Part shown: one piece after another, positions 7,567-8,082 of the stretch
How positions within the stretch are numbered: the first letter of the stretch is position 1
Layout: each line of letters starts with the position of its first letter
From: a virus
Taxonomy: Duplodnaviria; Heunggongvirae; Uroviricota; Caudoviricetes
Strand: one strand, 5' to 3'
Length of the DNA: 35,056 bases
IMG/VR virus record: IMGVR_UViG_2778261316_000004
Notes under the pieces: generated by a model
Database searches by the model: none
The model's input: only the letters and a program-made list of their open reading frames with translations
Told to the model about the DNA's origin: nothing
Program-made: the position numbers and the translations under genes

Positions 7567-7607
7567 TTTACATCAGTAAGATTATTATATACTGTAAATA
7601 TAAACAG
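7567..7607 (+). promoter_or_regulatory. SOS-type promoter with LexA box CTGTAAATATAAACAG (7592..7607) overlapping the -10 region
   Basis: Exact CTGT-N8-ACAG read at 7592..7607; TTTACA at 7567..7572 and TATACT at 7588..7593; strong RBS GGAGG at 7641..7645 before ATG 7650. Confidence 0.7.
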
Positions 7608-7649
7608 TGGTTATGTATACAGTATTGTTTTGGTGTCATAGGAGGAAAG

Positions 7650-7838
7650 ATGCAGGACTATTTTTTGGAGTCTTTGAAGCTTCAGCGCATTGATTTTTTT
7701 CTTAAGCTTGTAGCGGCTAGTGAGTGTAGTGATGAAGAGAAGGGGCTGGCTCTGCAGTGGGTTTCTGAATTGACTGATGAACTTATGGCAAAAATCAGAA
7801 GTCACGAATACAACCGCTCAATGGATGTCATCAGCTGA
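7650..7838 (+). CDS. Small LexA-controlled protein (62 aa), possible antirepressor (Tum-like role)
   Basis: ATG at 7650 after GGAGGA; directly downstream of the LexA box; function inferred from position only. Confidence 0.55.
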   Translation: MQDYFLESLKLQRIDFFLKLVAASECSDEEKGLALQWVSELTDELMAKIRSHEYNRSMDVIS

Positions 7839-7848
7839 GGTGACTTTT

Positions 7849-8082
7849 ATGCGTATTGAAATAATGATCGATAAAGAGCAGAAGATTAGCCAGTCTACCC
7901 TGGACGCCCTTGAATCCGAGCTTTACCGCAATCTGCGCCCCCTGTATCCCAAAACGGTAATTCGCATTCGCAAAGGTAGCTCTAACGGTGTGGAACTAAC
8001 CGGACTGCAACTGGATGAAGAAAGAAAACAAGTGATGAAAATTATGCAGAAGGTGTGGGAGGACGACAGCTGGCTGCATTAA
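7849..8082 (+). CDS. DinI-family protein (77 aa)
   Basis: ATG at 7849 with GAGGTG RBS; begins MRIE and ends with acidic/aromatic WEDDSWLH tail, resembling DinI. ORF track 7777..8082 is an over-extension. Confidence 0.75.
   Translation: MRIEIMIDKEQKISQSTLDALESELYRNLRPLYPKTVIRIRKGSSNGVELTGLQLDEERKQVMKIMQKVWEDDSWLH

Follow-up and report, generated by a model that had tools for sequence, protein, structure and literature searches.

The DNA analysed here is a stretch of 35,056 nucleotides (IMG/VR virus record IMGVR_UViG_2778261316_000004), which we refer to as the window, and it represents a P2-like prophage that is Fels-2-like, of the 186 type and placed in the Peduoviridae. The left part of the window holds, on the minus strand, the integrase gene int, with its start codon at 1053, and the 186-type repressor gene cI (1449–2105; the true start codon lies inside this ORF), whose product matches Pfam Phage_CI_repr (3.3e-31) and Phage_CI_C (4.7e-29). 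Beyond cI come, in this order, an apl-like ORF, cII (Phage_CP76), an ORF for a DksA/TraR-type zinc-finger protein, a dam methylase gene and, on the plus strand at 5083–7497, the replication gene A (gpA; Pfam Phage_GPA, 1.5e-126). The module that concerns us consists of the 150-nt gap 3′ of gene A and of the two small genes that follow; the operon begins 70 nt past the end of gpA, runs in the same direction and has a promoter-like site of its own.

The first of the two genes, tumA (7650–7838, + strand), had already been listed in the initial annotation as a 62-aa ORF; it encodes a putative antirepressor with 97% identity to STM2728 of Salmonella phage Fels-2 and with profile homology to Tum, and its Shine–Dalgarno sequence AGGAGG (7640–7645, +), four bases before the ATG, is kept in nearly all related loci. 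The second, tumB (7849–8082, +), encodes a DinI-family protein of 77 aa (Pfam DinI, PF06183, E = 6.6e-23) and follows after a gap of 10 nt, a distance conserved at 10–13 nt in relatives. The Shine–Dalgarno-like GAGGTG of tumB (7837–7842, +) overlaps the tumA stop codon TGA (7836–7838), and the two genes are probably coupled in translation. Immediately 3′ of tumB lies a G+C-rich hairpin (8084–8126, +) with a predicted RNA folding energy of −23 kcal/mol (z = −3.1), as stable as which was only one of 200 shuffles; the U tract that follows it is weak, its position is that of the terminator t95a in phage 186, and the similarity to Fels-2 stops just upstream of it. This hairpin is likely to be a terminator, at least a partial one, of the tum transcripts. 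A second terminator-like hairpin at 7827–7844, spanning the tumA stop and the tumB ribosome site, was rejected as a terminator or attenuator: its stability is unexceptional (−11.5 kcal/mol, z = −1.3) and the junction is not conserved. A search of the module region against Rfam gave no RNA family, and a search of 7480–8200 for inverted repeats with a 9-nt seed found none.

Two Overlapping LexA Boxes Precede the Operon

The putative promoter of the operon was read from the sequence. A −35-like hexamer, TTTACA (7567–7572, +), is followed after a spacer of 17 nt by the −10-like hexamer TACTGT (7590–7595, +), which is identical to the annotated −10 of promoter p95 of phage 186 (NC_001317); an alternative −10, TATACT at 7588–7593, would shorten the spacer to 15 nt. 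A generic promoter scan over 7300–8700 called no site, the −10 matching the consensus at just three of six positions and the promoter being missed for that reason, and we therefore assigned the promoter from the analogy with 186 p95 and from its conserved spacing: where both elements could be located in related genome loci, the distance from the start of TTTACA to the CTGT of the first LexA box is 25 nt in 24 of 29 loci and 24–26 nt in the other five.

That first box, CTGTAAATATAAACAG (7592–7607), is the sole CTGT-N8-ACAG in the 35-kb window and, if the analogy with p95 holds, overlaps the −10 of the tum promoter. The initial annotation had proposed both the operator and the overlap. The operator is present as described and is conserved in relatives; the overlap finds support in the shared TACTGT and in the conserved 25-nt spacing, but the generic scan does not bear it out. 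By itself, the loose CTGT-N8-ACAG pattern is weak evidence, since by chance a window should contain 0.49 matches, and one or more turned up in 37 of 100 shuffles. The 20-mer at 7590–7609, on the other hand, has 17 matches out of 20 to the LexA consensus TACTGTATATATATACAGTA. When the window was simulated 300 times with a first-order Markov model, this score was never reached, and the only 20-mers in the window with at least 15 of 20 matches are those of the two tum boxes and of a box at the int promoter (16/20). The second tum box, GTGGTTATGTATACAG (7607–7622), shares a single base, G7607, with the first and scores 15 of 20 against the consensus over its 20-mer. From their sequences, both boxes are probably occupied by LexA.

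The conservation of this region is extensive, and the operator, with its fixed spacing from the −35, is kept across Enterobacterales. Of 80 viral contigs, 74 have the LexA site, as do most of the 33 genome loci of other species, and box 1 is nearly invariant; the double box is found in 74 of the 80 contigs under a strict pattern and, under a relaxed one, in about 20 of the 33 genome loci, which come from different species. A comparison of 73 distinct close relatives shows next to no change in the −35, in box 1 or in the GTGG and ACAG of box 2. If only near-identical relatives are considered, everything from the −35 at 7567 through 7614 is fixed and strong polymorphism is confined to 7615–7617, in the middle of the box 2 spacer, and to 7623–7629; the spacer variants GT, AC, GC and AT are all present. 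More distant loci from Pantoea, Erwinia and Tatumella have one LexA box and not two, and the promoters of 186 and PSP3 also have a single box. MAFFT placed the LexA box of 186 once on box 2 and once on box 1, and we name neither box as the ancestral one.

Parallels to the double operator are also found on plasmids. When the 49 nt at 7584–7632 were used as a query, matches were obtained to more than 200 plasmids, including the promoters of colicin E1 (cea), colicin R (cra) and, on pPCP1, pesticin (pst), with 85–87% identity over 47–48 nt for these three. In alignment with cea, cra and pst the layout is the same: all read CTGT-N8-(A/C)CAGTGGTTAT-N4-ACAGTATT, that is, two 16-bp boxes with one base in common. 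The differences lie in placement and in what is controlled. In the colicin promoters, the boxes control a toxin gene and come after the −10, their distance from the −35 being greater by about 11 nt; in the prophage, the −10-like hexamer lies partly within box 1, and the controlled unit is a putative antirepressor operon. The overlapping SOS boxes of colicin genes bind two LexA dimers, and basal expression is not detectable (PMC2994835). By analogy, the double site of the prophage should give very tight repression and a late, threshold-like firing, and the colicin-type operator thus suggests a way to set induction at a high damage threshold. A literature search for an antirepressor associated with two LexA boxes gave no match.

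The Two Small Genes Resemble the Halves of Tum

The relationship of the 62-aa protein to Tum is distant. Its identity to the N-terminal 70 residues of 186 Tum and to PSP3 TumA is 21–22%, and the evidence for homology comes from profiles: the N-terminal 70 aa of 186 Tum hit phrog_698, the family of the 62-aa ORF, with an E-value of 5.9e-6 over residues 6–44 of each; phrog_1993, to which PSP3 TumA belongs, is matched by the 62-aa ORF at 0.002; and phrog_8554 is hit by both the N-terminal half of 186 Tum (1e-8) and the 62-aa ORF (3e-12). In an hhalign comparison, an alignment of 22 TumA sequences matched one of 186 and PSP3 over residues 2–43 of each (E = 1.4e-4, probability 53%). The homology to Tum residues 1–70 is remote but in register, and given these in-register hits and the identical gene order, we take the 62-aa ORF to be the half of a split tum that corresponds to tumA. 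AlphaFold2 models TumA with confidence as a two-helix hairpin (pLDDT 91.5), for which Foldseek retrieved from the PDB only unspecific helical hairpins with E-values above 1, and the sequence has no match in Pfam, NCBIfam, PADLOC or the PDB sequences. Nearly all sources name the protein a hypothetical protein, and one UniRef entry calls it a levan regulatory protein; we would thus be dealing with an antirepressor that lacks a proper family annotation. TumA of SopEPhi is 90% identical to the protein studied here. That TumA proteins of the Fels-2 type have antirepressor activity is suggested by analogy and by a personal communication about PSP3.

For the DinI-family gene, the initial annotation was right about the family, and only the start codon of the listed ORF needs correction. 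The ORF found mechanically spans 7777–8082 and has 101 codons for amino acids, whereas the Pfam DinI match, the alignment of Met1 with that of E. coli DinI (1GHH) and the annotated starts in Fels-2 and PSP3 all place the start at the ATG at 7849. The protein scores 81.3 bits against PF06183, for which the cut-off is 24.2, and matches the E. coli DinI structure 1GHH with an E-value of 2.7e-6, its C-terminal WEDDSW aligning with WESADDW. It is 100% identical to Fels-2 STM2726.1, 78% identical to PSP3 TumB and 42% identical to residues 71–146 of 186 Tum, so that a DinI-like part follows the antirepressor part here as it does in Tum. Against NF007893, the NCBIfam equivalog for chromosomal DinI, it reaches only 42.7 bits, with a cut-off of 111, and we therefore regard TumB as a phage DinI-like paralogue and not as an orthologue of host dinI. 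Its homology to DinI and the annotation of the 186 counterpart, “modulates SOS induction,” suggest that TumB acts on RecA filaments. The earlier proposal that the two ORFs together correspond to Tum thus agrees with the sequence comparisons, at the level of plain identity for TumB and the C-terminal half of Tum and at the profile level for TumA and the N-terminal half.

The second gene is not always there. In about 11 of the 33 related genome loci, tumA has no DinI-like gene downstream. The Pantoea, Erwinia and Tatumella versions among these loci also have the single LexA box. From the absence of tumB in these loci, tumA appears to be the indispensable part of the module, which fits the role of an essential trigger.

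An Invariant TumA beside Many Repressors

Self-cleaving repressors are usually cut at an Ala-Gly or Cys-Gly dipeptide, and the CI protein of this prophage has neither over its whole length. Its score against Peptidase_S24, 16.1 bits, is below the cut-off of 23.3 bits, and it matches the crystal structure of 186 CI (2FJR) with an E-value of 1.7e-31. Together with the two Phage_CI domains, this places it among the non-self-cleaving repressors of the 186 CI type, much as the initial annotation had suspected, and its features are in keeping with an induction that depends on an antirepressor.

A cognate antirepressor would be expected to co-vary with its repressor; we looked for such co-variation between TumA and CI and did not find it. 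TumA proteins that are at least 97% identical to the one studied here adjoin CI proteins with 38–100% identity to our CI, and the CI partners of this near-invariant TumA fall into at least 17 clusters at 80% identity. The divergence is unequally distributed within the repressor: the 61-residue N-terminal DNA-binding core retains 62–100% identity, while the C-terminal domain is down to 25–58%. For comparison, the N-terminal core of our CI is 41% identical to that of 186 CI and 49% identical to that of PSP3 CI. From one CI cluster to the next, the pR region is mostly different, and heteroimmunity is therefore probable for many of these phages. The data are most simply read as TumA contacting CI at its conserved N-terminal domain, and such a contact would fit what the literature reports for phage 186, where Tum blocks the binding of CI to DNA. 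One locus stands apart, that of Pantoea stewartii, in which a TumA 84% identical to ours is found with a 186-like CI, and this exception weakens a strict link between TumA and the N-terminal domain of CI.

Relation to Known Systems

The module is already known: it is the split tum locus of a Fels-2-like 186-type prophage. Over 7480–8092, the DNA is 96% identical to Salmonella phage Fels-2 and to many P2-like phages of Klebsiella, Salmonella and Escherichia. With Fels-2, this identity covers the end of gpA, the promoter and both genes, and the double LexA box and the location after gene A are shared as well. The Fels-2 annotation lists STM2728 as “hypothetical protein” and STM2726.1 as “DinI family protein, similar to TumB of PsP3”. 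The two prophages differ in CI, which is 38% identical overall, with 72% in the N-terminal and 26% in the C-terminal domain; in the cargo past tumB, consisting of STM2726 and STM2723.1 in Fels-2 and of a 111-aa ORF and a PDC-M35 pair here; and in the integrase and its promoter. According to Lemire et al. (PMC3121763), tum is split in two by a stop codon in both Fels-2 and PSP3, and the upstream gene of PSP3 is the antirepressor.

In coliphage 186, the corresponding arrangement is p95-tum-orf97. It has the same LexA-repressed promoter 3′ of gene A, with the −10 TACTGT within the LexA site, the same combination of antirepressor and DinI-like parts, of which the DinI half is also made separately, and a CI that is not cleavable; the 186 record gives p95, the LexA site, several Tum products, among them a DinI-like product of 77 aa from an internal GTG, and the terminator t95a. 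The differences are that Tum of 186 is one protein of 146 aa behind a single LexA box and followed by orf97, whereas our prophage has two genes, a double box and no orf97, with N-terminal halves that are about 21% identical. The tumA and tumB genes of PSP3 are, as here, separate genes (60 aa and 77 aa, with TumB 78% identical to ours, as given above), and the annotation of PSP3 tumA states that the gene is needed for the prophage to be induced by UV; unlike ours, PSP3 TumA belongs to phrog_1993 and not to phrog_698, with 22% identity, the promoter has a single LexA box, and the CI, of 286 aa, has a duplicated N-terminal domain. The order of gene A, LexA site and tum is the same in this prophage, 186, PSP3 and Fels-2.

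A further likeness, drawn from their description, is to the GfoA and GftA operons (PMC3121763), which are likewise LexA-controlled prophage operons with a DinI homologue and a small antirepressor. In those, dinI comes before the antirepressor gene, the phages that carry the operons are lambdoid and their repressors are of a different family. Antirepressors of the GfoA/GftA type act in trans on more than one repressor (PMC3121763).

As it re-identifies the split tum locus, our main finding adds nothing new. The side results, namely the colicin-type double operator, the invariant TumA beside many CIs, the optional tumB and a LexA-like box at int, are incremental. That the system is a published one and that the operator is a double site had escaped the initial annotation. 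It is this module that times the exit of a very common family of P2-like prophages from the chromosome: a matching region occurs in 1316 of the 5426 complete genomes of E. coli, and among the family members are Fels-2 and SopEPhi of Salmonella as well as many prophages of Klebsiella. Induction of SopEPhi in the gut is accompanied by expression of Tum (PMC9827884).

Proposed Mechanism and Alternatives

We hold with good confidence that the region is the SOS operon of a Fels-2-like 186-type prophage, with a split tum, that acts by a route from LexA through TumA to CI. In an undamaged lysogen, LexA would sit on the double operator, covering the −10 and start region, and keep tumA and tumB silent. 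The SOS response removes LexA, as activated RecA brings about the self-cleavage of LexA, and DNA damage would by this path lead to transcription of the tum operon. TumA, the predicted helical hairpin of 62 aa, would then bind the non-cleavable CI and keep it off its operators, and with CI removed, the early lytic promoter would be free for the expression of Apl, replication and excision; TumB, on RecA filaments, would tune the SOS signal. That TumA neutralises CI in this phage is what homology, synteny and the literature on 186, PSP3 and Fels-2 jointly point to. The proposal of an SOS-controlled antirepressor as in 186, made before these comparisons, gains support from the matching slot downstream of gene A and from the homologies of both gene products.

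The alternative that survives best, though we regard it as improbable, sees the operon as an SOS-induced accessory, or moron, whose only function is to modulate the SOS response and RecA through the DinI-like protein; another role would fall to the 62-aa protein, and the prophage would be induced by another route. LexA-controlled DinI homologues are common in prophages (PMC8072944), and both the scant annotation of TumA, without a Pfam or NCBIfam family, and its failure to co-vary with CI could be reconciled with such a role. A CI of the non-cleavable 186 type requires an inducer, however, and apart from the box at the int promoter, the two tum boxes are the only sites of the window with at least 15 of 20 matches to the LexA consensus. 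TumA is moreover homologous to the antirepressor half of Tum and is retained where tumB is lost, and Fels-2 is known from the literature to make lexA null mutations lethal, all of which argues for an inducing function of the operon.

That a frameshift or readthrough joins the two ORFs into a fused protein like the 146-aa Tum of 186 seems very unlikely to us. The genes are only 10 nt apart, and their combined length and domain order are those of 186 Tum, but they lie in different reading frames with a TGA between them, tumB has its own GAGGTG and ATG, and the junction sequence varies in relatives while the separate starts are kept; in addition, 186 itself makes the DinI half alone, from its internal GTG, and tumA is found without tumB. 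Also very unlikely is that the LexA-like site is fortuitous and the operon constitutive or carried on the upstream gene A transcript: the loose pattern should occur 0.49 times per window by chance and no canonical sigma-70 promoter was called, but the full score was never equalled in the simulations, different genera retain both boxes and the −35 spacing in the midst of variable positions, and colicin genes have proven LexA operators to which this stretch is homologous.

Returning to the LexA–TumA–CI route, the lack of co-variation allows a more speculative extension, which we put forward tentatively and consider rather doubtful, that the TumA of the Fels-2 group is a broad-range antirepressor and not a cognate one, recognising the N-terminal domain of divergent, apparently heteroimmune CIs of the 186 type. 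If this were true, a single SOS-controlled module could set off several P2-like prophages of the same host at once; the double LexA lock shared with colicins would make induction a late decision, taken at high damage, and a second LexA-gated promoter in this prophage would supply integrase at the same moment. An invariant TumA beside many CI variants predicts cross-induction between heteroimmune prophages, and such cross-induction would bear on gene transfer by phages during stress from antibiotics or inflammation.

Other Features of the Prophage

The LexA-like box near int is CTGGTTATACATACAG, read on the minus strand from 1100 to 1085, upstream of the int ATG at 1053; the 16 matches to the LexA consensus are those of the 20-mer at 1083–1102. 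The box fills the 17-nt spacer of a promoter-like TTGACA-17-AAAAAT (1078–1106, −), which lies 25 nt upstream of the start codon of int. Conservation of the box extends to 28 of 117 related loci sharing this type of integrase, and from the sequence, 1078–1106 could be an SOS-gated integrase promoter. The similarity of the prophage to Klebsiella phage 4LV2017 ends close by, at about 1111. Between cI and int, a 63-aa ORF (1242–1433, −) with an N-terminus resembling a signal peptide is probably lysogenic-conversion cargo.

On the other side of the module, just past the tumB terminator, the 111-aa ORF mentioned above (8275–8610, −) encodes a very acidic protein of phrog_17127, a family whose function is not known, and has no match in Pfam or PADLOC. 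It is followed at 9091–10181 (+) by a trypsin-like S1 protease and a 148-aa partner that match the PADLOC candidate defence pair PDC-M35 A/B (3.8e-91 and 6.3e-57, respectively); the pair occupies a variable slot between tumB and the portal gene (10211–11239, −). Towards the far end of the window, at 32279–32357 (−), lies a full-length RybB sRNA (Rfam RF00110, 105 bits). RybB being a host gene, the prophage probably ends on the right near this position, where its attachment site would lie as well.
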